Source: an uncultured Desulfobulbia bacterium | GTDB lineage: Bacteria > Desulfobacterota > Desulfobulbia > Desulfobulbales > BM004 | Reading direction: 5' to 3' | Assembly: GCA_964460745.1 (NCBI GenBank) | Contig: CAYWUR010000001.1 | Span: 1 to 30,659 of the forward strand | DNA: 30,659 nt | Shown: positions 2,246 through 30,659 of the stretch, piece by piece | Numbering within the stretch: position 1 is the stretch's first letter | How the letters are laid out: each line of letters begins with the position of its first letter | Program-made: the position numbers and the translations under genes | The notes under the pieces: model-generated | Databases searched by the model: none | Told to the model about the DNA's origin: nothing | Seen by the model: the letters and a program-made list of their open reading frames with translations, nothing else

Positions 2246-2351
2246 GCGGTCACAGGGCACACCTGCTGCGAACGATCGGCAAGCCTTATGTAGCACCAGT
2301 ACACGGCGTCTTGCCGATCGTCCACATCAGGCGCACCCTGTAACCACTTAC
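2242..2351. mobile_element. 110-bp palindromic element with GTAA...TTAC ends (probable degenerate IS66-type MITE or REP-like element)
   Basis: Arms 2241-2283 and 2310-2352 are inverted repeats matching at 35/43 positions. Begins GTAAGCG and ends CACTTAC. No target duplication visible. Confidence 0.55.
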
Positions 2352-2468
2352 AGTTTTTACGTAAGATTCAGGCATGTTGCTCACACTGTGATCGGTTACC
2401 CTTCGGTTAACTCCGGATCGGCGGCCTGAAAAGGCCGAAAAATTCAAGCTAAAAAAAGGTATTTGAAA

Positions 2469-2846
2469 ATGTCCGACAAAAAAACCCCAAAAGAACGGCG
2501 GCAGCATAAAAGATACAGCGTCAAAAGCTGTTCTTTCAGCGCAAAGTCTAAATTCGGAGAAATCGTTGACATAAGCATCGGCGGACTTGCCTTTACTTAT
2601 ATTGACAGAGGTGAATGGAAAAAGGAATCACTCGAATTGGGCGTCTTGTTCGGCAATGATGAATTATGCTTAAGCGATATACCATTTAAAATAATTTCCG
2701 ATTGTGCCATAGGTTCCGGTTTATCAATGATCAGAAGATGCGGCATACAATTTGAGGCGCTGACCCCCGCTCAGATTTCTCAGCTGGAATATTTTATCTG
2801 GATCAACACAAAAGCTGTTGATCGAGTAGAAGAACATAATGCTTGA
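2469..2846 (+). CDS. Stand-alone PilZ-domain protein (putative c-di-GMP receptor)
   Basis: RxxxR motif (RQHKR) followed by D/NxSxxG motif (DISIGG); C-terminal RCGIQF...L...Q...L pattern; about 125 aa. Confidence 0.85.
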   Translation: MSDKKTPKERRQHKRYSVKSCSFSAKSKFGEIVDISIGGLAFTYIDRGEWKKESLELGVLFGNDELCLSDIPFKIISDCAIGSGLSMIRRCGIQFEALTPAQISQLEYFIWINTKAVDRVEEHNA

Positions 2847-2849
2847 TTA

Positions 2850-2878
2850 TTGACAACCTGCCTGTTACACGCTATTTT
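2850..2878 (+). promoter_or_regulatory. Putative sigma70 promoter for the acsE-like operon
   Basis: Consensus -35 TTGACA (2850-2855), 17-nt spacer, -10 TATTTT (2873-2878, TAnnnT). Confidence 0.55.
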
Positions 2879-2926
2879 TGCAATTTTAACTTATCACGGA
2901 ATACAAGTGTCCAAGACAGTAAAAAC

Positions 2927-3119
2927 GTAACTATTCAGCAAAGGCAACAAATTACCATAAACTCGTACCCATAACTGTTCAGGTAAGCGAGTTCACGAGA
3001 CTCCGGATGTGCCCCAGGTTCGTTCGTTTCGACCTCCGATGCGTACTCCCTGTACGTGAGGAGGGCGAAACGGACGAGGTAAGCGCAGACTCCGAGATGG
3101 GGTGCATCTGAATAGTTAC
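2927..3119. mobile_element. Complete 193-bp MITE with 12-bp terminal inverted repeats and 8-bp target-site duplication (IS66-family-like, non-autonomous)
   Basis: TIR GTAACTATTCAG (2927-2938) / CTGAATAGTTAC (3108-3119); flanking direct repeat GTAAAAAC at 2919-2926 and 3120-3127; second copy at 1-119. GTAA ends with 8-bp duplications are the established IS66 signature. Confidence 0.85.
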
Positions 3120-3145
3120 GTAAAAACAAGCAAAGGAGAGCAAAA

Positions 3146-4042
3146 ATGTCGCAAAAAGTTTTAGGAATTGCTGAAAGTATAAATATAATGGGCAAACGAA
3201 GCGGCGCCGCCATGAAGGAAAGAAATCCCGCTCCGGTACAGGAGATGGCTAAGGAAGAAATCGCGGCCGGCTGCCATTATCTGGATTTGAATATCGGTCC
3301 CGCCCGGAAAGACGGCGTGGAGTTGCTGCCCTGGGTGGTGGAAACCGTGCAGGCGGCGTCGGATGCGCCGCTCTGTCTGGATACCACCAATACCGACGCC
3401 ATGGCGGCTGGTTTTAAGGCCGTCAAAAACAAAGACGTCGCGATCATGAATTCCATATCGGCCCAGCCCGAGCGTATGGAAAAATTAATACCCACTGCCG
3501 CCGAAACAGGCTGCAAGGCAATCGCGCTCCTCTGGGGGCCGGACGGCATGCCCAGGGATTCGAACGAGAGAGCGGCCATGGCCGTTGATCTTATGATGGC
3601 CTTGAATGAGGCGGGCATTCCCAATGAAAAAATCTTGTTCGATCCTATTGCCACGCCCATTACCCTGGGACCCGACCAGATCGCTTCCGGCCTGGAGTTC
3701 ATGAGCATGCTGGCGGATATCGCCCCCGGCGCCGGCTCCACCGTCGGTCTTTCCAATGTCTCCAACGGCGTGGATGAAAGTCTGCGCAAATATCTGGATC
3801 GCACCTACATGATAATGCTGATGAAGTATGGCATCAGCACCGCCATTGTAAACGCTTATGACTCTGAGTTGATGGCCATTATCAACGGACAACGGCAGAA
3901 TCTGGTGGACATGGTCCACAACATGATGGATGGCAATGAACCCGACCCCGCCACGCTTGATGCCGCCGCCCTTGAGCATTACAAGACATACAAGACCCTG
4001 TCGGGACAAACCGTCTTTTCCGAGTCCTGGCTGAAACTATAA
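3146..4042 (+). CDS. acsE: Methyltetrahydrofolate:corrinoid Fe-S protein methyltransferase (AcsE/MeTr-like, pterin-binding DHPS fold)
   Basis: IAESINIM start, YLDLNIGP, LCLDTTN, IMNSIS, LFDP and GLSNVSNG motifs of the MeTr/pterin-binding family; RBS AAGGAG upstream; RACo gene nearby. Confidence 0.8.
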   Translation: MSQKVLGIAESINIMGKRSGAAMKERNPAPVQEMAKEEIAAGCHYLDLNIGPARKDGVELLPWVVETVQAASDAPLCLDTTNTDAMAAGFKAVKNKDVAIMNSISAQPERMEKLIPTAAETGCKAIALLWGPDGMPRDSNERAAMAVDLMMALNEAGIPNEKILFDPIATPITLGPDQIASGLEFMSMLADIAPGAGSTVGLSNVSNGVDESLRKYLDRTYMIMLMKYGISTAIVNAYDSELMAIINGQRQNLVDMVHNMMDGNEPDPATLDAAALEHYKTYKTLSGQTVFSESWLKL

Positions 4043-4079
4043 TGGCCTGATACAGATTAAATCTGAAAGGGGGGCGCTC

Positions 4080-4658
4080 ATGGCCGATATCCCCTCGCAT
4101 CATCTCATTTACGGAACCTGCACGGATTTTGTCACCGGTGAAAACATTGTTGACACCGATGATGAACGATACCGCCAGAAAATTGCCCGTTTTCTGGTCA
4201 GGGAGAAAGGCTACGAAAAAAACGATCTCGAGATGCGACGCAAGATCGAAACCCTGTTCGCCAAACAGTTTGTCGTCTCCACTATCGACATTATCTTAAA
4301 AATGGCGGGCAAACGGTTCATGATCATCCGTTACGGCCCCGGCTCGCTTGTAACCCGGGAAAGACCGGCCATTGCGGCGGCCCGGGTTCTGGAGCCTTCC
4401 TACCAGATTCCCCTGGCAACGGTAACCAATGGCGAAGATGCCGAAATCATTGACACATACAACGGCAAAGTGCTGGGACGCGGCCTGGACGGTATTCCCT
4501 CCAAACAGCAGGCCGCATCGAGGATAGACTCTTTACGGTTTATCCCTTTCATTGATAACGCCAAAAAAGAACGGGAACTGCGTATTCTGAACGCCTTTGA
4601 TTTAGAGATCTGCTGCGCGGGTCCACTTTGCGCCCTGCCCCACGCCAAAGAGGGCTAG
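4080..4658 (+). CDS. Stand-alone type I restriction enzyme HsdR N-terminal-like (PD-(D/E)xK fold) protein
   Basis: DDERYRQKIARFLVREKGY...IDII...ATVTNG pattern resembles HsdR_N_2-type small proteins; no helicase motifs; 192 aa. Confidence 0.6.
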   Translation: MADIPSHHLIYGTCTDFVTGENIVDTDDERYRQKIARFLVREKGYEKNDLEMRRKIETLFAKQFVVSTIDIILKMAGKRFMIIRYGPGSLVTRERPAIAAARVLEPSYQIPLATVTNGEDAEIIDTYNGKVLGRGLDGIPSKQQAASRIDSLRFIPFIDNAKKERELRILNAFDLEICCAGPLCALPHAKEG

Positions 4659-4677
4659 GAGCAAAAGGATAAAACTT

Positions 4678-6027
4678 ATGAAAAACAATGCCACAACCTG
4701 GCACAAATCAAGCTGGCGACAATTACCGGCCATGCAGCAGCCGGCCTGGCCTGATCCCGATGAACATCGCACGGTTCTTGAAGCAATTGAACTCTTGCCG
4801 CCCCTGGTTTTTGCCGGTGAAATCCGGGCCTTGAAAAGCGCGTTGGCCCAGGCGGCGGCCGGTGAGGCCTTTCTTCTGCAAGGCGGTGACTGTGCTGAAG
4901 ATTTTGCCAACTGCAAGGCCGATATGATCAGGGATCATTTAAAGGTCATCCTGCAGATGGCGGTAATTTTAACGTATGCCGGCGGCAAACCGGTTATCAA
5001 GGTAGGCCGGATAGCGGGGCAGTATGCCAAGCCGCGCTCCAGCGATACCGAGACCGTCAACGGCGTCGAGATGCCAAGCTATCGGGGCGACATGGTCAAC
5101 AGCGCCGAACCGGCCATGCCTGCCCGGCTGGCTGACCCGCAAAGGCTGCTCAAGGGTTACTTCCTGGCGGCCTCCACCATGAACCTCCTCCGGGCCTTTA
5201 CCAGGGGCGGCTACGCGGCCTTGCACCGGGTCCATGCCTGGAACAACGAATTCATCAAAAAGTCGCCCATGGGCAGATCGTACGAGCGCCTGGCCAAGCA
5301 GATAAGCCAGGCTATAAATTTTATGAAGGTGATCGGTCTGAATACCGACATACCGCAGTTAAATCAGGCGACCTTCTTCACCTCCCATGAAGCTCTGCTC
5401 CTCGGTTACGAGGCGGCCCTGACCCGCCTGGATTCAACCACAGACAAATGGTATGACTGTAGCGCGCATATGCTCTGGATAGGGGACCGAACCCGCCAGG
5501 TAAACGGCGCCCATGTTGAGTTTCTGCGCGGCGTCCTAAATCCGATCGGCATAAAAATCGGCCCGAACCACGATCTGGAAGAGATCAAGCAGTTACTTAG
5601 CCGGCTTAACCCGGAGAATGAGCCGGGCCGTTTGACGCTGATCACCCGTTTGGGGGTCAACAGGATTGAAAAATATTTACCGCCGCTGATCAGGGCGATA
5701 AAAGAAGAAGGGTATAATGTGGTCTGGAGTTGTGATCCAATGCACGCCAACACCTATACGGCGGCATCAGGCCACAAGACCAGAAATTTTGATGAAATTA
5801 TCCAGGAGCTCCAGTCTTTTTTTGAAATTCATTGGGCGGAAGGCACGATTCCCGGCGGTGTTCATTTCGAATTAACCGGCGACAATGTCACCGAATGCAT
5901 CGGCGGGGCTCGAAACATCACGGATCATCAGCTGCACAAAAATTATCTGACAAACTGTGACCCGCGGTTGAATGCGGAACAAAGTCTGGAACTGGCTTTT
6001 CGGATTGCGGAAATGATCAGAACATAA
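4678..6027 (+). CDS. 3-deoxy-7-phosphoheptulonate (DAHP) synthase, class II
   Basis: LPPLVFAGE, LLQGGDCAE, GRIAGQYAKPRS, TSHEALLL, LWIGDRTRQ, CDPMHANT and CDPRLN motifs. Confidence 0.95.
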   Translation: MKNNATTWHKSSWRQLPAMQQPAWPDPDEHRTVLEAIELLPPLVFAGEIRALKSALAQAAAGEAFLLQGGDCAEDFANCKADMIRDHLKVILQMAVILTYAGGKPVIKVGRIAGQYAKPRSSDTETVNGVEMPSYRGDMVNSAEPAMPARLADPQRLLKGYFLAASTMNLLRAFTRGGYAALHRVHAWNNEFIKKSPMGRSYERLAKQISQAINFMKVIGLNTDIPQLNQATFFTSHEALLLGYEAALTRLDSTTDKWYDCSAHMLWIGDRTRQVNGAHVEFLRGVLNPIGIKIGPNHDLEEIKQLLSRLNPENEPGRLTLITRLGVNRIEKYLPPLIRAIKEEGYNVVWSCDPMHANTYTAASGHKTRNFDEIIQELQSFFEIHWAEGTIPGGVHFELTGDNVTECIGGARNITDHQLHKNYLTNCDPRLNAEQSLELAFRIAEMIRT

Positions 6028-6089
6028 TCCTGAATCCGTGACGTTCGTCCCGGCCGGCGGGATGCGGCGGCAACAACGGATTCAGGATT
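6026..6089. terminator. Long inverted repeat between convergent DAHP synthase and purF genes (probable bidirectional terminator or REP-like hairpin)
   Basis: Perfect 14-bp arms AATCCTGAATCCGT (6026-6039) / ACGGATTCAGGATT (6076-6089), with an inner TCCCG/CGGGA stem. No U-tract. Confidence 0.5.
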
Positions 6090-6092
6090 GTA

Positions 6093-7499
6093 TCAACCAA
6101 GGGACAGCTTCGTAAAAGACATATCCGGCGGCACGGGATAATCGCCGTTAAAGCAGGCCAGACAAAAACAGGCGCTGGATCGTTCCGTGGCCTCGACCAG
6201 GCCTTCCAGGCTTAGATAATATAGAGAGTCCAGGTCGAGATGACGGCGGATTTCTTCCACAGACTTGCTGGAAGCAATCATTTCACCGCGGGAAGAAAGA
6301 TCGATCCCATAATAACAAGGATTCCTGGTCGGCGGACAGCTTACCAGCATATGCACCTCTTTAGCCCCGGCCGCCCTTAAGGCGCGAACCCTGCTACGCC
6401 CCGTCGTGCCCCGGATGACGGAGTCCTCGACAATGATCACCCTTTTATCCTTGAGAAAGGACCTGACGGGATTAAGCTTCACCCGGACGGCAAATTCCCG
6501 CATGGACTGCGTTGGCTGAATAAAAGTACGTCCCACGTAATGATTACGTATTACCCCCATCTCCAAGGGAATACCCGAGGCCTGAGAATAGCCGATGGCG
6601 GCATAATTACCGGAATCGGGAAAGGGCATGACAAAATCACCTTCTATTCGGCATTCCCTGGCCATAATGCCGCCCATTCGTTTTCGGCACGCATAGACGT
6701 TAAAACCGAAGATATCACTATCCGGTCGGGCAAAATAAACATGCTCGAAGATACAGAAGCTTTGCCGCTGCCGGGGCCACGGGAATATGGATTTGAGGCC
6801 GTTCCGGTCGATTATCAGAACTTCGCCCGGTTCCACATCCCGGATATATTTTGCCTCTACCAGGTCAAGGGCGCAGGTCTCCGAGGCAACGATATGCGAA
6901 CCGTTATTAAGCCTGCCTAAACATAACGGCCGAAACCCTCCAGGATCGCGAATCGCCACCAACCGGTCCTGCGTCATAAGCAGAAGCGAATAAGCGCCCT
7001 TTATCTCTGAAAACGCTTTTTTAACAGCTTCTTCCAGCCCCTGGTGAATATTACGGGCCAGCAGATGAACCACCACTTCGCTGTCCATCGTCGATTGAAA
7101 AATCGAACCTTTGTTTTCCAGCTTATCACGCAAGGCCCTGGCATTTACAAGATTGCCGTTATGCGCCACCGACAGGGTATGGCCCTGATGGGTAACTTTA
7201 AAAGGCTGGGCATTAATGATGTTGGAAGAACCCGTCGTGGAGTAGCGGACATGCCCGATCGCCAGATGCCCCTTAAGACTTTGCAGGATGTCCTCATTAA
7301 AAACTTCGGGCACCAGCCCCATGGCATTATGCTGCAAGACCTGCCGGCCATCGGAAGTTACGATGCCGCAGCTTTCCTGGCCTCGATGCTGCAAGGCGTA
7401 TAAACCGAAATATGTCAGCCTGGAGGCGTCCTCATGTCCGAATATCCCGCAGACGCCGCACTCATCTCTGGGGCGGTCCGGACTTTTGTTGCAAACCAT
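6093..7499 (-). CDS. purF: Amidophosphoribosyltransferase (propeptide, Fe-S type)
   Basis: Propeptide followed by ECGVCG, LQHRGQES, GHVRYSTTG, HNGNLVN and PRPP motif IVEDSVIRGTT; Cys motifs CIFE, CYYGID, CLAC. ATG at 7499 preferred. Confidence 0.95.
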   Translation of the reverse strand: MVCNKSPDRPRDECGVCGIFGHEDASRLTYFGLYALQHRGQESCGIVTSDGRQVLQHNAMGLVPEVFNEDILQSLKGHLAIGHVRYSTTGSSNIINAQPFKVTHQGHTLSVAHNGNLVNARALRDKLENKGSIFQSTMDSEVVVHLLARNIHQGLEEAVKKAFSEIKGAYSLLLMTQDRLVAIRDPGGFRPLCLGRLNNGSHIVASETCALDLVEAKYIRDVEPGEVLIIDRNGLKSIFPWPRQRQSFCIFEHVYFARPDSDIFGFNVYACRKRMGGIMARECRIEGDFVMPFPDSGNYAAIGYSQASGIPLEMGVIRNHYVGRTFIQPTQSMREFAVRVKLNPVRSFLKDKRVIIVEDSVIRGTTGRSRVRALRAAGAKEVHMLVSCPPTRNPCYYGIDLSSRGEMIASSKSVEEIRRHLDLDSLYYLSLEGLVEATERSSACFCLACFNGDYPVPPDMSFTKLSLG

Positions 7500-7617
7500 A
7501 AAAAATTCCTTTTTAAATATCAGATTAATATTGCGCCGAGAGTACAATTACGTCCGTCAAAAGCGAAAGATTTCATCTTATAATCCTTTTTAAAAAATAA
7601 AAAAATCTTTTTTGTAA

Positions 7618-9177
7618 CTACCCTTTGTTTCGTAAATGGTCACCGGCTGCCGTATGATCCAGCCCCCGAAAAAAGTTAACCCAGGAAGAAGTATTATTTA
7701 AGGCCCAATCGCGGGGCGGCACAAAACCGGACTTCATTTCCGCCTCACGGCCACAGGCCTTGAGCCGCTCATAAACCAAGACATAAAGACAACGTTTTTC
7801 GCCGGGATATACTTCGCACCAGCCATCCCGGCTGCCGCCGCAGGGGCCGTTCAACAGATATTTGGCGCAGTCCGCCTGCGGACAGATATATGCCAGGTCC
7901 GCCAAGGTGCAGTCGCCGCAATTCTGACACCGGAAGGCCAGAAATTTAACAATATGCTCAAAACCGAACAAAAATTTTCGCAGGCAGGATTGATCCAGGG
8001 CCAGACATATTTTTTGCAGAGGACGACGAAAAACAGCCTGCTCGTCAAAGAAAAGATCATGAACCTGCCGGGCCAGAAAGTACGCCGCCTTTCCCCCCTT
8101 GCCGCGACCGGGGCGTACCGCCGGTTCGGACAGATTCAGGCCGCTGCTTTCGTCCTTTTCGTAATAATAAAAACTCCCGGCGGGCCAATAAGATAATTCC
8201 CCGACCAGAGTCCGCCAATCCGCGGCCCTGCCCTCGGCCTCTTCCAAAACAAAAGCCAGGTCGGCAAAGCTAAGGCCGGGGCCGCCGATATGGGCGCCGT
8301 TGTATCCCAGCCCTTTCAGGATAGCCAGCAGTTTGGCCGCCCTGCTTAAGCGCGCCCTTTTCCCCCTGTCCGGCGCGTTTGCCTCCTGTTTGATTTTCTC
8401 ATAGAGAGAGTCGGGAATCACGCAACCAGGCACCTTGCCGCGGTACATTAATTCGGTAACCGGCAGATTGGGAATAAAGACATTCCCCAGAATCGGAATA
8501 TCCAGCCCGTACTGTTTAATATAAAGAATGACTTCCTGAAATTTGCGGGCGTCAAACCCGAGCTGCGTAATGACGTAATCAGCGCCGGCCGCGACTTTAC
8601 GATGCAGCTTATAGTACTGCATCATGAGTTCCGCCTCAATCAGCTTGAAAGGCGAGAACGCCACGCCTTTCATAAAGGAGGTCGCCTGAATTTCACCCGC
8701 CGGCCGGCGGTTTCCGGCTGACAAGGCAACACCTTTATTCATGGCGCTCAACATATCCAGGACATGGACCGTATCAAAATCGAAAACCGGTTTCGGAAAC
8801 CCCCGATAGCCCTCTTTAGGGTAATCACCGGCAATAACCAACAGGTTGCGCAGGCCTCCCCGCTCCCAGGCAAAAAGCAGGCTTTCCATCTGGTTACGGT
8901 TCTTGTCCTTGCAGGAGAAATGGATTATGACTTCCGGTCCCATCGCCCGGATTTCCAGGCCCAGCACCTCCGGTGACAGCGCCGGATAACCACCGGCATT
9001 TTCAGTAATGCTGACGGCCTTAAATCGACCGTCAGCGGCAATATCTTCCGCCAGGCCAAGTATGCGGTTAAATTCCCGGCCTCTCCCGCCCCGACCGGGA
9101 ACCAACTCAAAGGTCAAGGTAAAATCGTCAGGGTCATGAAGGGCTTGTTTAAAAAGGGATTCGTTTATATTATGCAT
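7618..9177 (-). CDS. metF: Methylenetetrahydrofolate reductase with fused C-terminal Cys-rich MetV-like (MTHFR_C) domain
   Basis: N-terminal TFELVP, HFSCKDKN, LVIAGDYP, KVAAGADYVITQ motifs; C-terminal CQNCGDC...CPQADCAK...NGPCGG...CEV...C cluster. Confidence 0.85.
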   Translation of the reverse strand: MHNINESLFKQALHDPDDFTLTFELVPGRGGRGREFNRILGLAEDIAADGRFKAVSITENAGGYPALSPEVLGLEIRAMGPEVIIHFSCKDKNRNQMESLLFAWERGGLRNLLVIAGDYPKEGYRGFPKPVFDFDTVHVLDMLSAMNKGVALSAGNRRPAGEIQATSFMKGVAFSPFKLIEAELMMQYYKLHRKVAAGADYVITQLGFDARKFQEVILYIKQYGLDIPILGNVFIPNLPVTELMYRGKVPGCVIPDSLYEKIKQEANAPDRGKRARLSRAAKLLAILKGLGYNGAHIGGPGLSFADLAFVLEEAEGRAADWRTLVGELSYWPAGSFYYYEKDESSGLNLSEPAVRPGRGKGGKAAYFLARQVHDLFFDEQAVFRRPLQKICLALDQSCLRKFLFGFEHIVKFLAFRCQNCGDCTLADLAYICPQADCAKYLLNGPCGGSRDGWCEVYPGEKRCLYVLVYERLKACGREAEMKSGFVPPRDWALNNTSSWVNFFRGLDHTAAGDHLRNKG

Positions 9178-9282
9178 AATAGAGGATACTCCACGGCGTC
9201 TCCGGTTGTCCTGTAACCAGTTACAATTATGGGGGATTACGCAAATTATAGTCCTACCCCGGAGAGTAATTAACTTTTTAAA

Positions 9283-9966
9283 ATGACAAATAACAACAAA
9301 TTAATACCTGACTGGCGAAAAACAGCCTTGGTCTTTCATGAGCGGGCCGCGGAATACGACGGCTGGTTTGAAGGCAATCCGGTTTTTGAAATTGAATTGG
9401 CCGCCCTCAACAAAATAAGCATAGTCCTGCGCAAACCAAAATTTGAAATAGGAGTCGGCTCCGGCAGATTCGCCCAGGCCCTGGACATAACCCTGGGAAT
9501 AGACCCGGCCCGGGCGGCCCTTGATTTCGCGGCCAGGCGCGGCGTGGCAACTTGTCAAGGAATCGGAGAGGCATTACCGGTTAAGAATAAAAGTCTGGGG
9601 AGTATTTTCATGCTTTTCAGCCTCTGCTTTCTGAGGAATCCCCGGCAGACCCTGGCTGAATGCCATAGAGCGCTACAGGACAAAGGCTGTCTTGTTCTGG
9701 GGATGGTGCCGGCATCAAGCGCCTGGGGTAAGGCGCTGACCGTCAAAAAAGCCAAAAAACATCCTTTTTACCGTAATGCTTCTTTTTATAAAGTTGAAAC
9801 GGTAGAAAAATGGCTTGCTGAAGCCGGTTTTAAAATCATCGAGATCAAATCTTCATTATTGCAACCGCCGACGGGATTAACAAAAATGGAGCAACCGCGC
9901 GAAGGACGCCACGGCGACGCCGGATTCATGGTCATGGTTGCCGGGAAAAAACCGGGAAACGGTTAA
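9283..9966 (+). CDS. Class I SAM-dependent methyltransferase
   Basis: AAEYDGWF start, motif I EIGVGSGRFA, GIDPA, GIGEALP, LCFL..P..L.E..R.L. Confidence 0.85.
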   Translation: MTNNNKLIPDWRKTALVFHERAAEYDGWFEGNPVFEIELAALNKISIVLRKPKFEIGVGSGRFAQALDITLGIDPARAALDFAARRGVATCQGIGEALPVKNKSLGSIFMLFSLCFLRNPRQTLAECHRALQDKGCLVLGMVPASSAWGKALTVKKAKKHPFYRNASFYKVETVEKWLAEAGFKIIEIKSSLLQPPTGLTKMEQPREGRHGDAGFMVMVAGKKPGNG

Positions 9967-12431: not shown

Positions 12432-13814
12432 TTACATCTCCGCCGCGCTGATTGCGCCGCAAATCTCCAGAGCCATCGCGTCGATGACCGCCTCGTTTTC
12501 CCCTTCCACCATCACCCTGACCACCGGTTCGGTGCCCGACGGCCGCACCAGAATCCTGCCCTTATCGCCGAGTTTTTGTTCCAGGGCGGCTACCTTGTCC
12601 CGCAGCGCCGGAATCTGTCGCGGATCCATCTTCCGAGCGGTACGCACATTCTTCAGAACCTGGGGATAGGACTCCATAATTCCGGTGAGTTCCGACAAGG
12701 GTTTTTGTTGCTTTTTCATACTGACAAGCAGTTGCAGGGCGGCAAGAGTACCGTCGCCGGTTGTGTTGCTCTTAAGAAAAATCAGGTGGCCTGATTGTTC
12801 GCCGCCGAAACTGAAGCCGCCCCGCCGCATTTCTTCAACTACGTAACGGTCGCCGACCTGTGTCCGAACCATCCTGCCGCCCATGCGTCGCATGGCGATT
12901 TCCAGCCCCATATTGCTCATAACGGTGGTCACCAGGGTTTTCTTCTTTAGTTTGCGACGGGCCATGAGGTCGGCGGCACAGATGGCCATGATATAATCGC
13001 CGTCCACAATGCTCCCGTGTTCATCTGCAACAATTAAACGGTCGCCGTCACCGTCAAGGGCAATGCCGATATCAGCGCCCGTTGCCCGCACAGTTTCAGC
13101 CATACACTGCGGATAAAGCGCGCCGCATTTTTCGTTTATGTTCTTGCCGTCGGGCGCAACCCCGAGGGTGGTAACCTTGGCGCCCAGCTCCTCAAAAACA
13201 TGGGGCGCCACGCCATATGTGGCACCGTGGGCACAGTCCAGCACAATATGAAAATCGTCCAGCGTGTATCGGCCGGGAAAAGTATTTTTTAAAAAAACGA
13301 TGTACCGGCCTCTGGCATCATCGATGCGGTCGGCCTTGCCTATTTCATCGGCAACGGGCCGGAGGGCCTCCATCTTTTTCGAAAAAATGAGATCCTCTAT
13401 TTCGGCCTCCAGGGCATCAGGCAATTTGAAGCCGTCATGCGAAAAAATCTTGATGCCGTTATCCTGAAAAGGATTGTGCGAAGCGGAAATAACCACGCCG
13501 GCGTCAGCCCGCATGCTGGTAGTTATAAAGGCAATGCCGGGCGTGGGCAGCGGACCGACCAGCAAAACATCGACCCCCATGGAGCATATCCCGGCCGCCA
13601 GGGCGTTCTCAATCATGTAACCGGACAGACGGGTATCCTTGCCGATTACGATCCGGTGCCCATGCTTCTTATTTTTGACCAGATATGCTATCGCCCTGCC
13701 GATCTGCATGGCGATTTCGGAAGTCATGGGAAAAATATTGGCAACGCCCCTGACCCCGTCAGTACCGAACAATTTTCGTGTCAGACCTTCTTCTTGATTT
13801 GTTTGCCACCCCAT
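12432..13814 (-). CDS. glmM: Phosphoglucosamine mutase
   Basis: [17 protein letters not shown] (phospho-Ser), DGDGDR, GGEQSGH, RPSGTEP motifs. Confidence 0.95.
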
Positions 13815-13863
13815 AAATCACCCTATCGGCAGCTTCATTATTTTTCTTTACCCCTCGCCGTTT

Positions 13864-14865
13864 TTATCTTATGTTTTTTTTCCTTTTCCGTTCGCTGATC
13901 TCCAGCATCACGGATGCCGGGGAGATGTTAACAACATGGACATCGGGCGGAGTTGTTATGTGTACCCTGAGTTCGTGTTTTCCGGCGGAAAAATCGGCAA
14001 AATTGACAACGGCGGGAAAGAGGCTTTTCAAATCCCGGGTATTATTCAACAGGCTTAAAGGCAACTCGGCGCGGACATCAACAGTTGCCGGTAGCAAGCG
14101 AATCTTTTTATCACCCTGCCGCACCGCGGTCGGCAAGAGTTTGACCGGGATATTAGCAACCAGCCGCTTCGTTGTTTTTTCCCTGATTTTTATGCGGGCG
14201 GTGACAACGGTCTCCCCGATTAAATCGGCTATGGCCGGTTTAAGGTTCAGCGTCACTTCCTTGAGCGTCGGCGCCTTCATGTTGGCGATGTCAATTTTAT
14301 TTGTCTTCAGATAGTCTTCACCGCTCAAAACGCCGGCCGGGCCGGCAATAACGATACTGGTGGGCTCCAGTTGCAGCCCCGCCAGTTCGTAACCGGCGGC
14401 GGGCGCCCCCTTGATCACCGCCTTTACCCGCAGTTCTTTTTGAATCAGTTTATCCAGCAGAAGAGTTAAACTGGTTGGCTGTATTCGTAAAACACTGACC
14501 CCGCGCGGGAAAGGGATGGCATCCGGTTCATTATGCACGACGACCTTGCCCGGTCCCGCGTCGGACAAATCCACGGAACGGCTGATATGCTGCCCGGACA
14601 ACCCCGTTATCAGACGCCGCTGGCCGCTGACCAGAACATCGAGTTCTTTTTTGAATTGATTGGAAATAACCAGGTTGCGGGGCAGATTGACGATTTCCAC
14701 CGGCACGACGACATTCATATCCACCTTGTCCTCGCCGACCACGAAATACCAGAGGAATATCGCAAAAAAAAGGGAAAGGAGCTTAAGGACCCAGTTTTTG
14801 GGTCTCTTTTTAGGCCAGGGCCTTGTACTCAAAAAGGCTATTATCCGTTTAGCCAGTTTTTCCAT
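13864..14865 (-). CDS. cdaR: CdaR/YbbR-family diadenylate cyclase regulator
   Basis: N-terminal KLLSLFFAIFLWYFV anchor, YbbR-type repeats (AAGYEL...P....IAGP), position between cdaA and glmM. Confidence 0.85.
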   Translation of the reverse strand: MEKLAKRIIAFLSTRPWPKKRPKNWVLKLLSLFFAIFLWYFVVGEDKVDMNVVVPVEIVNLPRNLVISNQFKKELDVLVSGQRRLITGLSGQHISRSVDLSDAGPGKVVVHNEPDAIPFPRGVSVLRIQPTSLTLLLDKLIQKELRVKAVIKGAPAAGYELAGLQLEPTSIVIAGPAGVLSGEDYLKTNKIDIANMKAPTLKEVTLNLKPAIADLIGETVVTARIKIREKTTKRLVANIPVKLLPTAVRQGDKKIRLLPATVDVRAELPLSLLNNTRDLKSLFPAVVNFADFSAGKHELRVHITTPPDVHVVNISPASVMLEISERKRKKNIR

Positions 14866-15629
14866 AACGGTTGCTGGGATTCTTTATGAATAAAAATTTC
14901 CGCCAGTTGATTACGCATAACCGTCCCATCCGTCATTTTGTTGATCGCGCCATGCTGGACAAGGGATATCTGGCGGGTTTCCTCCGAGACCACAACGACC
15001 ACCGCGTCGGTCTCCTCTGAAAGACCAATGGCGGCCCGGTGTCTTGTCCCGTACTGCTTATTGATATACGGATTCTTGGTCAAGGGCAGCAGGCAGCCGG
15101 CCGTCTGAATCCGACCTTTGCGAATTATCACCCCGCCGTCATGCAGGGGGGAAGAAGTGTGAAACAGACAAATAAGGAGTTCCTTGCTTAATATGGCATC
15201 AATATTATGGCCGGACTCAACATAATCCTGCAGACCGGTTTCTCTTTCAAGCACTAGGAGGGCGCCGATCCGATGTCTGGCGAAATACTGAGCGGTCTGG
15301 ACAATTTCCTCCAGGGCGGCCATGGTTTCATCAAGGGGTTTATGAAACGCCGTTGTCCCTACCTGGGTCAAGGCCCGTCGGATGTCTCGCTGAAAAACGA
15401 TTATAATGATGAGAAAAATTGAACTTAAAAAGGTGCCGAGCAGCCAATAAAGGGTCAGAAGTTCAAGGGCGCGCGCCCCGAAATACATAACGGTCAGGAC
15501 GGCGATGCCGACCAGCATCTGGGCCGCCCGTGTCCCCCGGATCATCAAAAGAACCCGGTAAATTATGAAGTAGACCAACAGGATGTCAACCACATCCTGC
15601 CAGCGTAAGGAGCGTAAAACGTTAAACAT
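14841..15629 (-). CDS. cdaA: Membrane diadenylate cyclase (c-di-AMP synthase)
   Basis: Three N-terminal TM helices, IIVFQRDIRRAL, GALLV, SPLHDGGVII (DGA-like motif) and GTRHRAAIGLSEETDA (RHR motif). Confidence 0.93.
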   Translation of the reverse strand: MFNVLRSLRWQDVVDILLVYFIIYRVLLMIRGTRAAQMLVGIAVLTVMYFGARALELLTLYWLLGTFLSSIFLIIIIVFQRDIRRALTQVGTTAFHKPLDETMAALEEIVQTAQYFARHRIGALLVLERETGLQDYVESGHNIDAILSKELLICLFHTSSPLHDGGVIIRKGRIQTAGCLLPLTKNPYINKQYGTRHRAAIGLSEETDAVVVVVSEETRQISLVQHGAINKMTDGTVMRNQLAEIFIHKESQQPLWKNWLNG

Positions 15630-24969: not shown

Positions 24970-25473
24970 CTATCCAGCAATCGATTGGATCCTGTTTATC
25001 TTATATTGCAGATAAAAATTTAAAAATAAGAAGGTAAGGAGGCTTGAAAAATTGATGTTCATCTGTAGATAATTATTAAAATGATCCATTAGTATACGTT
25101 TGACTTTAAAAACCTGGGGGATGAGGACGCTCAGCATCACCAGGCATATCACATTGGTTAAAAGATCCAGAATATTCAGTGATGTCGGCGCGTCAAAACC
25201 GCCCGACACCAAGGCCGCGGCCCGCATGAACCCCGAATAAAGACCAGCTACAGCCACCAGGGAAAACACCGCGATCCCGGTGACAAAAACACCCTTGCCC
25301 AGCTTTTCCCGGCTGTGCAGGCTGTTAATCGCCGCCCGTCTGGTCAAAAACCATATGGGGAAATAAATCATGCCGGAAAGAAGAGTGAGAAAAACAACCG
25401 TGGCAACAGGCGTTTTTTTAAGATCCGTTTTTTTCTTGCCCCGCAGCCGCGGCAGCCGTCTTTTCGTAACCAT
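24970..25473 (-). CDS. DUF4234-like membrane protein
   Basis: K..V..V.FLTLLSG.IYF.IWF and C-terminal LLTFLF..FYLQYKIN patterns; four hydrophobic segments. ATG at 25473 avoids overlap with the DUF72 gene. Confidence 0.65.
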   Translation of the reverse strand: MVTKRRLPRLRGKKKTDLKKTPVATVVFLTLLSGMIYFPIWFLTRRAAINSLHSREKLGKGVFVTGIAVFSLVAVAGLYSGFMRAAALVSGGFDAPTSLNILDLLTNVICLVMLSVLIPQVFKVKRILMDHFNNYLQMNINFSSLLTFLFLNFYLQYKINRIQSIAG

Positions 25474-25481
25474 GTTGCCTG

Positions 25482-25490
25482 TGGTATAAT
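25482..25490 (+). promoter_or_regulatory. Extended -10 promoter element upstream of the DUF72 gene
   Basis: TG-G-TATAAT, a perfect TGnTATAAT, 34 nt before the ATG at 25525. Confidence 0.55.
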
Positions 25491-25524
25491 GAATTCCACT
25501 GAATTCTGCAATTTCTTTAAACAA

Positions 25525-26262
25525 ATGACATCCTCTACCATACATATCGGCACCTCCGGCTGGCATTACCGGCACTGGCGGGGAAATTTCTATCCAGCCG
25601 GCCTGGCGCCGCCCCATTTTCTTGAATTTTACTGCCGGCAATTTCAGACAGTGGAGATCAACAACTCCTTTTACCGCCTGCCGCTGGAAAAGACCCTGGC
25701 CGCCTGGCGGGCGGCGGCGCCGACCGACTTTCTATTCGCCGTCAAGGCCGGCCGTTTTCTCACCCACATGAAAAAGCTCAAGGACGCCGCCGAACCGCTC
25801 GACTATTTCCTGACCAGAATCGCCATACTGGGCGACAAGCTTGGCCCTGTCCTCTTCCAGTTGCCGCCGCGCTGGCAATGCAATGTCGAGCGGCTCACCG
25901 CTTTTCTGGCGCTATTGCCGGACCAATTTCGCTACGCCTTTGAGTTCCGCGATGAAAGCTGGTTCCGCCAACCGGTTTACGATGCCCTCCGCCGGGCAAA
26001 CGCCGCCTTCTGCATCTATCACCTGGCCGGTCGGTCGGCGCCCCGCCAAGTCACGGCGGACTTTATCTATATCAGGCTACATGGCCCGGCCGCACCATAC
26101 AGCGGCAAATATGACGACCGGACCTTAGCCGAATGGGCCGACGCCATCTCCGCCTGGCAGCGCCAAGGCAAGGATGTTTTCTGCTATTTTGACAACGACC
26201 AACACGGTTACGCCGCCGCCAACGCCCGCCGACTGGCGGAAATTCTTAACCAGCTCGCCTGA
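25525..26262 (+). CDS. DUF72 (YecE-like) family protein
   Basis: IHIGTSGW.Y..W, VEINNSFYR, FAVKA, LGPVLFQLPP, AFEFR..SW, YIRLHG, FCYFDND motifs. ATG at 25525. Confidence 0.9.
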   Translation: MTSSTIHIGTSGWHYRHWRGNFYPAGLAPPHFLEFYCRQFQTVEINNSFYRLPLEKTLAAWRAAAPTDFLFAVKAGRFLTHMKKLKDAAEPLDYFLTRIAILGDKLGPVLFQLPPRWQCNVERLTAFLALLPDQFRYAFEFRDESWFRQPVYDALRRANAAFCIYHLAGRSAPRQVTADFIYIRLHGPAAPYSGKYDDRTLAEWADAISAWQRQGKDVFCYFDNDQHGYAAANARRLAEILNQLA

Positions 26263-26570: not shown

Positions 26571-29500
26571 ATGCGAAAAAAATCTGCCGCCCGACTACTG
26601 TCATGCCTTCTCCTCTTTATTTGTTCCCCGTTAACCGTTAATGCCGCCCGGCCGCCGGCCGACCTCTCCTGCATATTAAAGGTCAAGGCCTACTATATTC
26701 ATAAAAAATTCCGTGCCCAGAACCCTACATTTACGAGCTTTACTTTCGATGAAGAAAAGGGCGCGCAAGTCACCTGTAAAGCGGTCACAAGCCGGAGCTG
26801 GTACGAAGTCAGCCATTTAAGCGCGCCGCATTTATGGTACCGCGACTCAAGGGGCAAATGGACGGATCAACTGCCTGCATGCCCTCACTGGTCTTATTTA
26901 TATTCAGTATGGCGACCGGAGGACATGGAATACTATGACAACCTGCCTTACCCTGAATTTGATGCAAGGGAATACCGAACACGCAAGCCGTACCAGCTGC
27001 CGCCGGAACTGGTAGAATCTTTATGCGCCCAGTGGAATCAGGCCGGCAAAAAGGCAAACCCCGACACCGGCAGAAAATACTGCCTGAATCATCAAAAAAT
27101 AGGCTCATCCGTCAATGTCGCCAATGGCAATCTTTTCGATGCCTACCAGGTTTCACCTGATCCGAATTTTCCCATTACCATAAACTATAACAGCCGCTCC
27201 CGCCGGACGGGCCGTTTCGGATACGGCTGGAACGACAGTTACGATATCCGTATTCTGCCGGGTCTGGCCGGCGCGGTCATTCTAATCGATGCCGACGGTC
27301 GGGAAGAAGAATTCCAACCCGGCACGGACGGCACATTCGCCGCGCCGCCGGGCAACCACGATATCCTAGCAACGGACAGCACGGGAACATACCGGCTCAG
27401 TCGCAAGAACGGCATGGTTGTCACCTTTAACCAGGAGGGCCGCCCCACATCGGTCGCCGACCCAAACGGCAATACCACGAGCTACAATTATGACGGCGAA
27501 ATATTATCCGGCATCACCGGCCCGGCCGGGCAAATTTTAACATTTACGGCAGACGGCAACGGCCTGCTTACAGGCATCACCGATTCTGCCGGCCGATCTT
27601 CGTTGTTCAGCTATGATGCAGAGGGGAATTTAACCATGGTTACCAACCCGGCGGGCGACAGCCGGATGTTTTCGTATGACGCCGATCATAACCTTATCCG
27701 CAAAACCGATACACTGGGCCGGACAACCGATTACGCCTATGACGATCAGGACCGGGTGCTGAGATCCCTTGCCGCCGACGGCAAGACGCACCAAGTTGAA
27801 TACAACGCGCCCGGCACGACAACCGTTTCCGACACCGCCGACCGGCAGACCGTTTTCATACATGACGATTCAGGCAGAGTAACGGAAAAAATCGATGCGC
27901 AAAACAATATGACCGAGTATGGCTGGGATGCCGACATGAACCTGACGAGCATAAAGGATGCCGGCGGTACACGGTCATACGAGTTTGACAACGTCGGCAA
28001 CCTACTCTCTAAAACCGACCAGGACGGCAACACAACAACATACACCTACGACTCCCGGGGCAACCTGCTTTCCATCACCGACCCGGAAGGCCGCAGCCTC
28101 GGTTTCACTTACGATCAGCAGGGCAATCTGCTTTCCGTCAGGGATGCCGCCGGCAACGTCACCCGATACCAATATAACGCGCGTGGCAGAATAACCGGCA
28201 AAATCGACCCGACCGGCCGAAACTGGTCCTATGCCTATGATGAGTCCGGCAATATTATTAAAATTACCGGCCCGACCGGCGCGGCGATCAACTTAACTTA
28301 TGATGCGGCCGGCAACCTTAATTCCCTGGCCGACCCCAACGGCAAGGTTTCGTCTTTTGAACACGATATCCTCAACCGGCTGACGAGCATTACGGATCCG
28401 CTGGGCAATCAAACCGTTTTTACTTACGATGCCATGGGTAACCGATTGTCTGCTACCGATGCCGACGGTAACACGACAACCTTTGCATACGATTACCAAA
28501 ACCGCGTTGTCGGAATTGTCGACGCCTTGGGGCGGACGACATCCTTCGCTTATAGCGCGGCCGGCTGCTCCGCCTGCGGTGATAACGGCGACGGCAGGCC
28601 CGCGACCGTTACCGATGCCAACGGCCGGACGACAACATTCGAATACGATGCGCTCGGCAGGCTGTCAAAGGAAGCACGACCATCGGCAAATGAAAACTCT
28701 TATCAATATGACGCGACCGGCAATTTGCTTGCCATGACGGACGGCAAAGGGCAAATCACCCGCTACCGTTACGATAATCTGGGACGGCTGCTGGAAAAAA
28801 CCTATCCTGACGGAACCGCGACTTTTTTCACCTATGACGCGAGTAACAACATAATAACCGCCGGCAATCAGTATATCTCGTATCGCATGGCCTACGACCT
28901 TCTGGACCGGCTGACGGAAATCTCCGATTCAAACGGCATGAAGACTGTCTATGAATACGACGCGCTGGGCAACAGAACACGAATGATCACGCCGGCAGGC
29001 GGCGTCGTGACATACGCCTATGACCTTGATAACCGCCCGGCCCGGATAGATTCTTGGGCGGGAAGCATCGGCTTCGCCTATGATGCCGCGGGCCGCAGAA
29101 CCGCCCTTTCTCTGCCCAACGGGATAACCACGTCATATGCCTACGATAACGCGGGACGGCTGCTACATTTGCAAGGCGTCAACCGCAAAGGCAGGTTGGT
29201 GAATTTCTTTTCCTATACGCACGACAAGACCGGGAACCGCCTGACAAACGCCGCCGACAATTGGCAGAAAAGCTACAACTACGACAACGCCTACCAAATC
29301 CTCGGCGCGGCGCTGACCAGGAACCATAAAAACGGCAAATACGGTGGCAAAAAGCACGAAAAACATGAGAGTCATCACGCCAAAGATAAAAATAAGCGCG
29401 AGGGAAACGGCAGGCATGCGCATCATGGAAAGCTGCGTGCCTTTTCTTACGACCCGGCGGGAAACCGGATGAACGGTCCGCAAGATAAAGATGTATATCT

Positions 29501-30587
29501 TTACAATGAAGAGAACCAGCTCACCTACGACCGGCGGCACTATTACCAGTATGACGAAAACGGCAATCTTGTCCGGAAGATAAGGCTGGACGAAGATGGC
29601 GAGATAAGGCATGAAACGACTTATGGGTATGATTACGAAAACCGCTTGACTAAAATTACCAAAAACGGCCATGATGAATCGACAACCGTTGGTTTCAAGT
29701 ATGATCCATTCGGCCGACGGATTGAAAAAATGGTCGAGAAATACGGCGACGGGAAGATCAAGGTAAATATTTTCACATACGTATATGACAACGAAGATAT
29801 TATCCTTGAAATACGGACCAAACCGCACGGCGGTAAGGAAAAGACGCAAAAAATCAGCTACCTGCATGGACCCGGCCTCGATGAACCCCTAGCGATTGAG
29901 GAGAAGGGCCGCATTTATTTTTACCACGCCGACGGCCTGGGGAGCATAGTCGCCCTGAGCGATAAAAAGGGACATACCGTCCAGACTTACGATTACAGCC
30001 CCTTCGGCACCTTGAAACGCCACGGCAACAAAATAAAAAACCATTACACCTTCACCGGCCGTGAATGGGACAGGGAAACCGGTCTCTATTATTACCGGGC
30101 CAGATATTACGACCCGAAAACCGGCAGATTTATCACCGAGGACCCGCTTGGCTTTGCAAGCGGCACCACAAACCTGTATAGTTACGTCGGTAATAATCCG
30201 CTTAATTGGGTGGATCCGTGGGGACTTAGTTGGAGATCTGTTGTTTTGGGGGGCACGAGTACGGCACTGAACACGGCTGCACTTGCTACTGTTTGGAATC
30301 CTCCATTAGCAGCAACGTTTAAAACATTGGGAGGTGCTGCCACATTGCTCACTCTCGGTAATGCATACTATGAGTATAAAACAGGTCAAATATCCAAAAA
30401 TAATTTGGCATTAACTGCTTTAGAAACTGCTGGCCAATTAATAGGCGGAAAACTTACTTCTAAAGCCTTTGGCGTTGCAGGTGAAGCTTTCTTTAATGGT
30501 ATTGCAAGAACAAGTGACGTTTTCGGTACAGCCTTGGATGCTATACAAACCTTTGCCCCTACTCCAGGAGGAGGGACTTGTAAATGA
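26571..30587 (+). CDS. RHS/YD-repeat polymorphic toxin with Sec-type signal peptide, DUF6531-like domain, RHS core and C-terminal toxin domain
   Basis: Signal peptide MRKKSAARLLSCLLLFICSPLTVNA; SVNVANGNLF...YNSR...FGYGW (DUF6531-like); many YD..GN/GR repeats; RHS core FTGREWDRETGLYYYRARYYDP..GRFITEDPLG...NLYSYVGNNPLNWVDPWG. Confidence 0.93.
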   Translation: MRKKSAARLLSCLLLFICSPLTVNAARPPADLSCILKVKAYYIHKKFRAQNPTFTSFTFDEEKGAQVTCKAVTSRSWYEVSHLSAPHLWYRDSRGKWTDQLPACPHWSYLYSVWRPEDMEYYDNLPYPEFDAREYRTRKPYQLPPELVESLCAQWNQAGKKANPDTGRKYCLNHQKIGSSVNVANGNLFDAYQVSPDPNFPITINYNSRSRRTGRFGYGWNDSYDIRILPGLAGAVILIDADGREEEFQPGTDGTFAAPPGNHDILATDSTGTYRLSRKNGMVVTFNQEGRPTSVADPNGNTTSYNYDGEILSGITGPAGQILTFTADGNGLLTGITDSAGRSSLFSYDAEGNLTMVTNPAGDSRMFSYDADHNLIRKTDTLGRTTDYAYDDQDRVLRSLAADGKTHQVEYNAPGTTTVSDTADRQTVFIHDDSGRVTEKIDAQNNMTEYGWDADMNLTSIKDAGGTRSYEFDNVGNLLSKTDQDGNTTTYTYDSRGNLLSITDPEGRSLGFTYDQQGNLLSVRDAAGNVTRYQYNARGRITGKIDPTGRNWSYAYDESGNIIKITGPTGAAINLTYDAAGNLNSLADPNGKVSSFEHDILNRLTSITDPLGNQTVFTYDAMGNRLSATDADGNTTTFAYDYQNRVVGIVDALGRTTSFAYSAAGCSACGDNGDGRPATVTDANGRTTTFEYDALGRLSKEARPSANENSYQYDATGNLLAMTDGKGQITRYRYDNLGRLLEKTYPDGTATFFTYDASNNIITAGNQYISYRMAYDLLDRLTEISDSNGMKTVYEYDALGNRTRMITPAGGVVTYAYDLDNRPARIDSWAGSIGFAYDAAGRRTALSLPNGITTSYAYDNAGRLLHLQGVNRKGRLVNFFSYTHDKTGNRLTNAADNWQKSYNYDNAYQILGAALTRNHKNGKYGGKKHEKHESHHAKDKNKREGNGRHAHHGKLRAFSYDPAGNRMNGPQDKDVYLYNEENQLTYDRRHYYQYDENGNLVRKIRLDEDGEIRHETTYGYDYENRLTKITKNGHDESTTVGFKYDPFGRRIEKMVEKYGDGKIKVNIFTYVYDNEDIILEIRTKPHGGKEKTQKISYLHGPGLDEPLAIEEKGRIYFYHADGLGSIVALSDKKGHTVQTYDYSPFGTLKRHGNKIKNHYTFTGREWDRETGLYYYRARYYDPKTGRFITEDPLGFASGTTNLYSYVGNNPLNWVDPWGLSWRSVVLGGTSTALNTAALATVWNPPLAATFKTLGGAATLLTLGNAYYEYKTGQISKNNLALTALETAGQLIGGKLTSKAFGVAGEAFFNGIARTSDVFGTALDAIQTFAPTPGGGTCK

Positions 30588-30659
30588 AATTAGGACTTTC
30601 AGGAGAAGCATTCGGGAATTTGCTTGTAGTCGGAGGCCTTATTGGACTGATAATCTGTG
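30584..30659 (+). CDS. 5-prime fragment of a candidate immunity protein (truncated by window end)
   Basis: ATG overlaps the RHS stop codon (ATGA, 30584-30587); RBS AGGAGG at 30566-30571; open to the window end, reading MKLGLSGEAFGNLLVVGGLIGLIIC. Confidence 0.65.
   Translation, partial: MKLGLSGEAFGNLLVVGGLIGLIIC

Follow-up and report, generated by a model that had tools for sequence, protein, structure and literature searches.

The RHS polymorphic-toxin gene that runs almost to the end of the contig analysed here codes for a C-terminal tip of 119 amino acids (aa). Judged from sequence comparison, this tip and the gene directly behind it are a conserved, mobile and previously unnamed module. 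The window, ie the whole 30659-nt NCBI contig, comes from a microbial-mat metagenome and ends 25 codons into the second gene. The two genes very probably form a cognate toxin–immunity module. The product of the downstream gene, about 100 aa long, is integral to the membrane and, by analogy with characterised membrane-acting toxins, permeabilisation of the membrane is on balance the probable mode of action of the tip. The parts of the window on which the argument turns are the following.

26571-30587, plus strand: RHS polymorphic-toxin gene, 1338 aa (open reading frame (ORF) translation, Pfam and NCBIfam domains)
30213-30227, plus strand: aspartyl-protease motif DPWGL, aa 1215-1219
30228-30584, plus strand: C-terminal putative toxin tip of an unnamed family, aa 1220-1338, 119 aa
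30566-30575, plus strand: Shine-Dalgarno sequence AGGAGGAGGG within the last tip codons, with GGAGG at 30570-30574
30584-30659, plus strand: candidate immunity gene, first 25 codons, ORF cut by the contig end

Composition and gene arrangement

An earlier note on this DNA had described an Ala/Gly/Leu/Thr-rich domain behind a DPWG motif. That is what is found, the exact length being 119 aa and not 120. Counted over 120 aa from L1219, the composition is 15.8% Ala, 14.2% Thr, 13.3% Gly and 12.5% Leu, with 13 charged residues and a grand average of hydropathy of +0.27; in the same numbering the helical hydrophobic moment peaks at 0.47, at residues 87-107. Small residues make up about 48% of the tip. 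The fall in GC from about 55 to about 43 percent, which the note had estimated by hand, was reproduced: GC is 0.430 over 30241-30540 and 0.437 over the tip, compared to 0.551 over the repeats (27100-29400), and just 4.5% of the 357-bp windows of the contig have GC this low. GC at third codon positions (GC3) drops exactly at DPWGL: the core has 0.62, the tip 0.27.

The overlap and strong ribosome-binding site read earlier from the sequence were also confirmed. The ATGA at 30584-30587 supplies both the ATG start of the downstream ORF, which begins MKLGLSGEAFGNLLVVGGLIGLIIC, and the TGA stop of the RHS gene, and the GGAGG ends 9 nt before that ATG. Pfam and NCBIfam gave no nuclease, deaminase, ADP-ribosyltransferase or other family match to the window tip, in agreement with the absence of such motifs that had been noted by eye. 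The suggestion of a possibly undescribed family held for both partners, neither of which falls in a Pfam, NCBIfam or PDB-sequence family.

Pairing and exchange of the two genes

About 20 relatives of the tip were found in metagenomes, nearly all at RHS C-termini. An exhaustive phmmer search of 1.84 billion representative proteins returned eight true relatives, with E between 4e-20 and 8e-4; the majority are short metagenomic ORFs in which the end of an RHS core (…NNPxxxxDPxGL) is followed by a homologous tip, and a profile built from these added further members. Two other phmmer matches, P0005 and P0010, were set aside as spurious, both being repetitive proteins. Nothing was matched by a word-indexed homology search with the single tip as query, by peptide-pattern scans over GTDB genomes and JGI metagenomes, or by tblastn of the tip against 72,556 plasmids, and the encoding-contig index held no gene on record with the window RHS product.

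When the contigs carrying tip homologues were fetched, the next gene was in every case homologous as well, coding for 99-124 aa. By tblastn over all fetched loci, 19 modules at about 16 distinct loci have a tip with an immunity homologue directly behind it. The two genes overlap by 4 nt (ATGA or TTGA) in 10 of these, and are separated by 24-195 nt in the remainder. Constant synteny and translational coupling would also be displayed by an obligatory helper, and the downstream membrane protein could be an accessory factor of the RHS protein, acting in its export, release or maturation in the producer rather than in immunity; a Sec-signal RHS protein with no secretion genes in the 26 kb upstream would sit well with such a role. 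Two kinds of loci point the other way. Orphan tips, which the earlier note had in mind, occur as tandem modules in the relatives L002 and L015, where the main RHS gene is followed by two or three modules, each made up of a core end, a tip and an immunity gene. Within these arrays identity is about 80% between tips and about 66-76% between immunity proteins, ie each additional orphan tip brings its own diverged copy of the partner. Secondly, intact copies are present beside decayed tips, or where tip and RHS gene are both missing (L009-L012, L019, L020, L024). A Syntrophobacteraceae metagenome-assembled genome (MAG), like related contigs from peat, has a decayed remnant of the tip, without helix 1 and the C-terminal part, and about 620 nt downstream of it the immunity gene is intact. 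One such homologue, P0044, is identical on at least 24 contigs, and its loci look like an orphan immunity gene kept without its toxin. At L019, L020 and L024 the immunity genes have no detectable tip at all. Tandem arrays and orphan retention are the rule for immunity genes and would be pointless for a helper, so that an accessory role has little probability.

The decayed-tip loci (L009-L012 and L014; for example L010, 9150-9377 and 10001-10339) have housekeeping neighbours and no RHS gene. L020 contains at 2841-5829 an 'immunity island' which starts with an RHS C-terminal fragment carrying an unrelated tip and its own downstream gene, continues with hicA/hicB and a REP-associated tyrosine-transposase-like gene, and has the orphan three-helix immunity gene last.

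Pairwise identities of tips and of immunity proteins correlate over 17 modules (Mantel r 0.63, p <= 2e-4), although tight linkage alone would make any two genes correlate in this way, and specificity is not proved by it. Taken together, the tandem arrays, the orphan copies beside decayed tips and the co-divergence argue for a cognate toxin–immunity pair.

The end of the core is normally the best-conserved part of RHS proteins. In the window, L001 and L013, however, identity is 56-60% between the tips and no more than 35-41% over the last 100 residues of the core. Tips that are more conserved than the cores carrying them, together with the GC3 break at DPWGL, indicate that the module moves between RHS scaffolds, and bear out the earlier proposal that the tip had been swapped together with the adjacent gene, if not the word 'recently', for which the data give no date.

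The downstream membrane protein

A profile search gathered 44 cluster representatives of the immunity family, none of them named, and Pfam and NCBIfam contain no family for these proteins. Among the GTDB species representatives the family is present in only two MAGs, a Pseudomonadota and a Syntrophobacteraceae bacterium; the module is rare in genomes and largely confined to uncultured organisms. The family N terminus, M-K-x-G-(F/L)-S-G-E-A-F-G-N-L-L, is also that of the cut ORF in the window. The source run's independent Logan contig likewise ends at base 30659, so the window copy could not be extended from the sample. A counterpart was found on a JGI contig: P0032 (104 aa) is identical to the window fragment at 25/25 residues, including the otherwise variable VVGGLIGLIIC, and on this sequence identity it is taken as the full-length version of the cut ORF. 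The contig break falls inside the first helix of the immunity gene, in the variable part of the family. That the break is shared suggests strain heterogeneity or repeated orphan modules downstream.

The AlphaFold2 (AF2) model of P0032, built from 43 sequences, has a mean predicted local distance difference test score (pLDDT) of 83.7 and three helices, at residues 7-34, 42-63 and 68-101. Foldseek with this model gave nothing better than E of about 2, the matches being generic helical bundles. Helices 1 and 2 are strongly hydrophobic throughout the family, with best 19-residue Kyte-Doolittle means of 2.6-3.7 and octanol-scale sums of -9 to -18 kcal/mol. Small residues abound in helix 3 (…AMAGGLANYYG…), which is less hydrophobic and runs on into a Lys/Arg-rich tail. 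The charges of P0032 obey the positive-inside rule (HKRG in loop 1, SDLSIEG in loop 2 and six K/R in the tail), from which the predicted topology has the N terminus outside and the basic tail in the cytoplasm. The membrane-type immunity candidate anticipated by the earlier note has thus been substantiated, for P0032 and the family, as a three-helix integral-membrane protein with two strongly hydrophobic helices. The loops of P0032 are shorter than 10 residues, and because they are so short a toxin could make contact with the protein only in or at the membrane.

The module in this genome might be a non-functional remnant whose likeness to the other loci reflects shared ancestry only, as could be argued from the 25 visible codons of the immunity gene and from the lack of RNA reads in the sample's one small metatranscriptome. 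We consider this hardly credible: the RHS frame of 1338 codons runs unbroken to the end of the tip, neither the Shine-Dalgarno sequence nor the 4-nt overlap is damaged, P0032 is an intact full-length partner, and the family-invariant tip residues are all kept, the 89%-conserved G97 (D in the window tip) being the one conserved position of note to have changed.

The tip family

Conservation was assessed in an alignment of 18 tips recovered from the loci. In tip numbering L7, L19, P25, K32, Y48 and E49 are invariant, and G8, S11, T16, A20, G35, N45, A46, G73, G74, R94 and T101 nearly so; D104, which is D105 in the numbering of the 10-sequence alignment A4, is conserved there at 90% or more. LNTAALA, WNP and NAxYEYKTGQIS recur as motifs. 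There is no conserved His and no conserved internal or catalytic-type Cys across the 18 tips.

The AF2 model of the window tip has four helices, at model residues 2-21, 26-53, 58-82 and 84-110, which correspond approximately to the following positions.

about 30228-30287, plus strand: predicted tip helix 1 (AF2 model)
about 30300-30383, plus strand: predicted tip helix 2 (AF2 model)
about 30396-30470, plus strand: predicted tip helix 3 (AF2 model)
about 30474-30554, plus strand: predicted tip helix 4 (AF2 model)

The conserved WNP turn connects helices 1 and 2, which have the highest hydrophobicity of the four. Helix 1 has a conserved small-residue zipper at 4-8-12-16-20 (S4-G8-T12-T16-A20 in the window), helix 4 has two shorter small-xxx-small zippers at 87-91-95 and 93-97-101, and the invariant K32 lies mid-way along the semi-hydrophobic helix 2.

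Two subtypes of tip can be distinguished, and the window tip belongs to the short one. Short-subtype tips have one Cys 1-4 residues from the C end, with endings such as …TCK, …ECKS, …KCK, …CGK, …CRQ and …CKK (observed in the window, L001, L003, L004, L005, L013, L021, P0002, P0003 and P0015), and no other conserved Cys. In the window it is C1337 (30579-30581), the only Cys of the tip and next to its C terminus. This residue could form an intermolecular disulfide or be a site of modification. In the long subtype the core of about 110 aa is followed by a Ser/Thr-rich linker of variable length and then by a strongly conserved C-terminal peptide, GG(F/Y)LIYPNKPNTNMMQ(S/T)VY(K/R)K. Its immunity genes lie 79-195 nt behind the tip, with no overlap, and the long-subtype tips have no Pfam match. 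They were found at the following places.

L002, 1437-1850 and 2537-3058: long-subtype tips
L015, 10560-11081: long-subtype tip
L026, 353-862: long-subtype tip
L027, 493-1104: long-subtype tip
L028, 2620-3159: long-subtype tip
L025, 2625-3257: long-subtype tip

A further homologue, P0009 (L006, 1375-1968), is fused not to an RHS core end but to a leader rich in Gly and Asp, in which GYHYNFDTGNFE is repeated. The leader may be a different delivery domain; alternatively, P0009 may be an orphan and its ORF fortuitous.

Mode of action

In the mechanism we propose, the aspartyl-protease plug (DPLGF...DPWGL) would cut the 119-aa tip, enclosed by the RHS shell, free after L1219. The freed tip, small, all-helical and rich in Ala, Gly and Thr, would partition into the cytoplasmic membrane of the target cell and there, in the form of an ionophore or of a small oligomeric pore, dissipate the membrane potential. 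Shielding of the producer would fall to the coupled three-helix inner-membrane protein of about 100 aa, which would bind its cognate tip in or at the bilayer. We infer self-cleavage, toxicity, membrane insertion and depolarisation, as well as the immunity function and specificity of the module. An ionophore or pore is the best reading because the partner is purely membrane-embedded and the tip has no enzymatic signature; the proposal as a whole, from the cleaved tip through depolarisation to immunity at the level of the bilayer, is one to which we give slightly better than even confidence.

Most characterised RHS tips are enzymes, and a soluble cytoplasmic enzyme (a nuclease, NADase or similar) with a membrane-anchored immunity protein has therefore to be considered, the more so as E49, R94 and D104 are conserved. 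The tip is nevertheless a poor candidate for an enzyme. It has about 110 aa, is predicted to be all-helical with 48% small residues and has no conserved His. No family was matched when eight tips were run against Pfam at E <= 1, enzyme families included, and scans of the tips, immunity proteins, long-type tips and RHS N terminus against Pfam and NCBIfam produced sub-threshold noise only (for example geobacillin-26 at E 0.04, CypR, and holin-X at E 0.18). The tip profile had only chance matches among the PDB sequences (E >= 0.2). Moreover, so little of the immunity protein is exposed as soluble surface that it could hardly occlude an active site. A soluble enzyme is accordingly very improbable.

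The hydrophobicity of the tips is less decisive. The earlier note had called the tip hydrophobic and proposed a check for transmembrane (TM) segments. Some hydrophobic character there is, as the slightly positive hydropathy shows, but it is mild, and the description was overstated in that the helices are borderline for membrane insertion. Across the family the best 19-residue Kyte-Doolittle mean is 1.06-1.74, and Wimley-White octanol sums of the tips range from -3.3 to +1.8 kcal/mol, in contrast to those of the immunity helices. Values of this kind fit, as far as sequence can tell, a toxin that is soluble in the RHS shell and inserts later, and not a constitutive membrane protein.

They are also compatible with the main rival, a membrane-associated toxin which makes no pore and instead binds a target embedded in the membrane (a transporter, for example, or a lipid-linked cell-wall precursor or the flippase of the latter), which it blocks or hijacks, with the three-helix protein sequestering the tip or shielding the target. 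A membrane immunity protein tells only that the encounter occurs in or at the membrane, and the invariant K32, Y48 and E49 and the conserved YEYKTGQIS loop resemble a binding or active site more than the lining of a pore. The ionophores used in contact-dependent growth inhibition (CDI), and several bacteriocins, also require membrane-protein receptors (PMC11630599). On the other hand, the tip has no similarity to a known binder or enzyme, and helices packed against each other in the bilayer would be in keeping with its small-residue zippers and with the absence of a conserved His or Cys. We regard a non-pore toxin as unlikely, if less so than the other alternatives considered here.

Besides the ambiguity of the Mantel correlation, several points weigh against depolarisation by an inserted tip and its neutralisation by the partner. 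No 19-residue stretch of the window tip reaches the usual TM threshold, the best Kyte-Doolittle mean being 1.18. The AF2 model of the tip, from only 10 sequences, is poor (pLDDT 57, predicted TM-score 0.33), and Foldseek with this too uncertain model gave only generic helical bundles at E > 2. A strict GxxxGxxxG zipper is present in only 3 of the 18 tips, and not in that of the window. K32, Y48 and E49, with R94 (89% conserved), could equally be an active or binding site. The immunity gene of the window is truncated to 25 codons. Finally, the window RHS protein has a Sec signal peptide and no PAAR domain, with no secretion genes upstream that would suggest a delivery route. The interpretation given in the earlier note is consequently supported in part: what sequence analysis can address came out as the note proposed, and the conserved, mobile two-gene module stands, but the mechanism goes beyond the evidence.

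Comparison with known systems

The Rhs tip Tse5-CT makes pores selective for ions, and its neutralising partner Tsi5 has two TM segments (PMC9637101, PMC10684867). The pair Tse5-CT/Tsi5 (PA2684/PA2683) of Pseudomonas aeruginosa is a close parallel to the window in several respects. Both tips are Rhs C-terminal pieces behind an aspartyl-protease plug (DPxGL...DPxGL in Tse5), both are small (149 versus 119 aa) and without enzymatic motif, and both have semi-hydrophobic and amphipathic predicted helices. Both partners are small integral inner-membrane proteins encoded beside the toxin, that in the window family having three helices compared to the two predicted TM segments of Tsi5. Tse5 has a PAAR-like N terminus and rides on VgrG and the H1 type VI secretion system (T6SS), whereas the window RHS protein has a Sec signal and DUF6531, with no T6SS genes nearby. 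No homology to Tse5 was detected: the tip profile did not match Tse5 among all PDB chain sequences at E <= 10 (8cp6 included), a test which assumes that the CT fragment was deposited as its own chain, and the phmmer search with the tip found no CdiA, colicin or Pseudomonas Rhs protein.

The ionophore domains of CDI, small bundles of helices, have CdiI proteins of the membrane as partners (PMC11630599). Those of CdiA-CT EC93 groups 1-6 are, like the window tip, small helical bundles of polymorphic toxins, which dissipate the membrane potential as is proposed here, and they share with the window module a small polytopic membrane immunity protein, strong co-diversification and many diverged cognate pairs. 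They ride on CdiA (type V secretion) behind VENN and a separate N-terminal entry domain, whereas the window tip directly follows DPWGL on an RHS protein and has no entry domain. They are predicted to be five-helix bundles with GxxxGxxxG in helix 4, and the window tip has four predicted helices and no such zipper; the two are set apart here by descriptions and by a single-sequence phmmer search.

The channel domain of colicins has about 200 aa folded into a globule of ten helices, among them a hairpin that is clearly hydrophobic, and a tip of 119 aa with four predicted helices cannot be one. The resemblance to the pore-forming colicins (A, B, E1, Ia, K and N) is one of behaviour, in that they are water-soluble and insert into the inner membrane from the periplasmic side, as the tip may do, and their immunity proteins are, like the window partner, small polytopic proteins, and neutralise the toxin inside the bilayer, as is proposed for the window partner (in part PMC11630599). 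The window partner fits the functional class of membrane immunity proteins in being small, polytopic, adjacent to the toxin and conserved with it.

In its overall architecture the window RHS protein is similar to the Sec-dependent RHS toxins of the WapA type (PMC12704120), with a signal peptide, DUF6531, an RHS shell, a polymorphic tip and an immunity gene downstream. WapA is Gram-positive and its characterised tips are nucleases with soluble immunity proteins; the window contig looks diderm and the partner is a membrane protein.

A more detailed version of the proposal can be put forward only tentatively, and we hold it to be doubtful in full. With about 110 aa and four helices, the tip would be a new, minimal ionophore without relation to Tse5-CT, the CDI ionophores or colicins, carried on a Sec-dependent, T6SS-independent RHS protein of strictly anaerobic diderms (Desulfobacterota-like), and neutralised in the bilayer by the new three-helix family through its near-invariant N-terminal G-x-S-G-E-x-F-x-N-L. 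The C-terminal peptide of the long-type tips could then serve in targeting or receptor binding.

The RHS carrier and the contig

The remaining features of the RHS protein are as follows.

aa 1-25, plus strand: Sec-type signal peptide MRKKSAARLLSCLLLFICSPLTVNA (from sequence)
aa 27-177, plus strand: region without Pfam match (Pfam scan)
aa 178-248, plus strand: DUF6531 (Pfam)
29994-30227, plus strand: Rhs-associated core, aa 1142-1219 (TIGR03696, 1.3e-27)
30141-30155, plus strand: aspartyl-protease motif DPLGF, from aa 1191

RHS repeats were matched by PF05593 (1.6e-134, in 17 stretches) and TIGR01643 (5e-105), and the best PDB sequence matches of the protein are Rhs shells, including the Tse5 entry 8cp6. 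The Rhs-associated core plugs the RHS shell, and the DPxGx(18-19)DPxGL motif directly precedes the variable tip. Self-cleavage of the window protein would be expected after L1219 by analogy with Tse5 (PMC9637101, PMC10684867).

The N-terminal 180 aa contain no PAAR/prePAAR domain and no other Pfam match, and there are no T6SS, T5SS or T7SS (type VI, V or VII secretion) genes in the 26 kb upstream. A reading of the protein as a T6SS effector was rejected, there being no PAAR, VgrG or T6SS gene in the window. So was a reading of its signal peptide (LLSC) as that of a lipoprotein: on inspection the hydrophobic run before the Cys is too short. The stretch of about 150 aa behind the signal peptide has five Cys (within 26571-27101, aa 1-177). 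The RHS shell contains a 37-aa His/Lys-rich low-complexity insert, NHKNGKYGGKKHEKHESHHAKDKNKREGNGRHAHHGK (29322-29432, aa 918-954), which adjoins a region with lower GC and strong AT skew. The insert might be a surface loop that binds metal or an anionic surface.

Elsewhere in the window, 314-9966 and 12432-15629 encode RACo (a corrinoid activator), a pterin-binding methyltransferase-like protein, MTHFR with a C-terminal DUF5981, a class II DAHP synthase and a cdaA-ybbR-glmM operon. The contig also encodes a DUF748/AsmA-like protein with a match to the OmpA family. The gene set suggests an anaerobe with C1 metabolism of the Wood-Ljungdahl type, and the DUF748/AsmA-like protein with its OmpA match, along with other genes, suggests that this anaerobe is a diderm. 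An ORF of 223 aa without Pfam match (24970-25641, minus strand) overlaps the 5' part of a DUF72 ORF (25315-26262, plus strand). The listed GTG start of the latter is probably too far upstream, since the DUF72 domain begins only at residue 93.

Implications

Few membrane-acting RHS tips have been characterised, and in the literature searched Tse5 is the one for which this has been done experimentally. If the proposal is true, the module is a second such family, unrelated to Tse5 and with a much smaller tip. The general picture of polymorphic toxins would be unchanged, the family being new and the type of system already known. For expression and rescue work the module offers a defined pair, with a candidate ionophore of compact size, and about 20 natural toxin–immunity variants are available for mapping specificity. 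Its carrier, with no T6SS signature, raises the matter of how a Sec-exported RHS protein delivers a toxin to the inner membrane of a diderm neighbour. The module lives in uncultured anaerobes of mats, peat and groundwater, where antagonism has been little studied.

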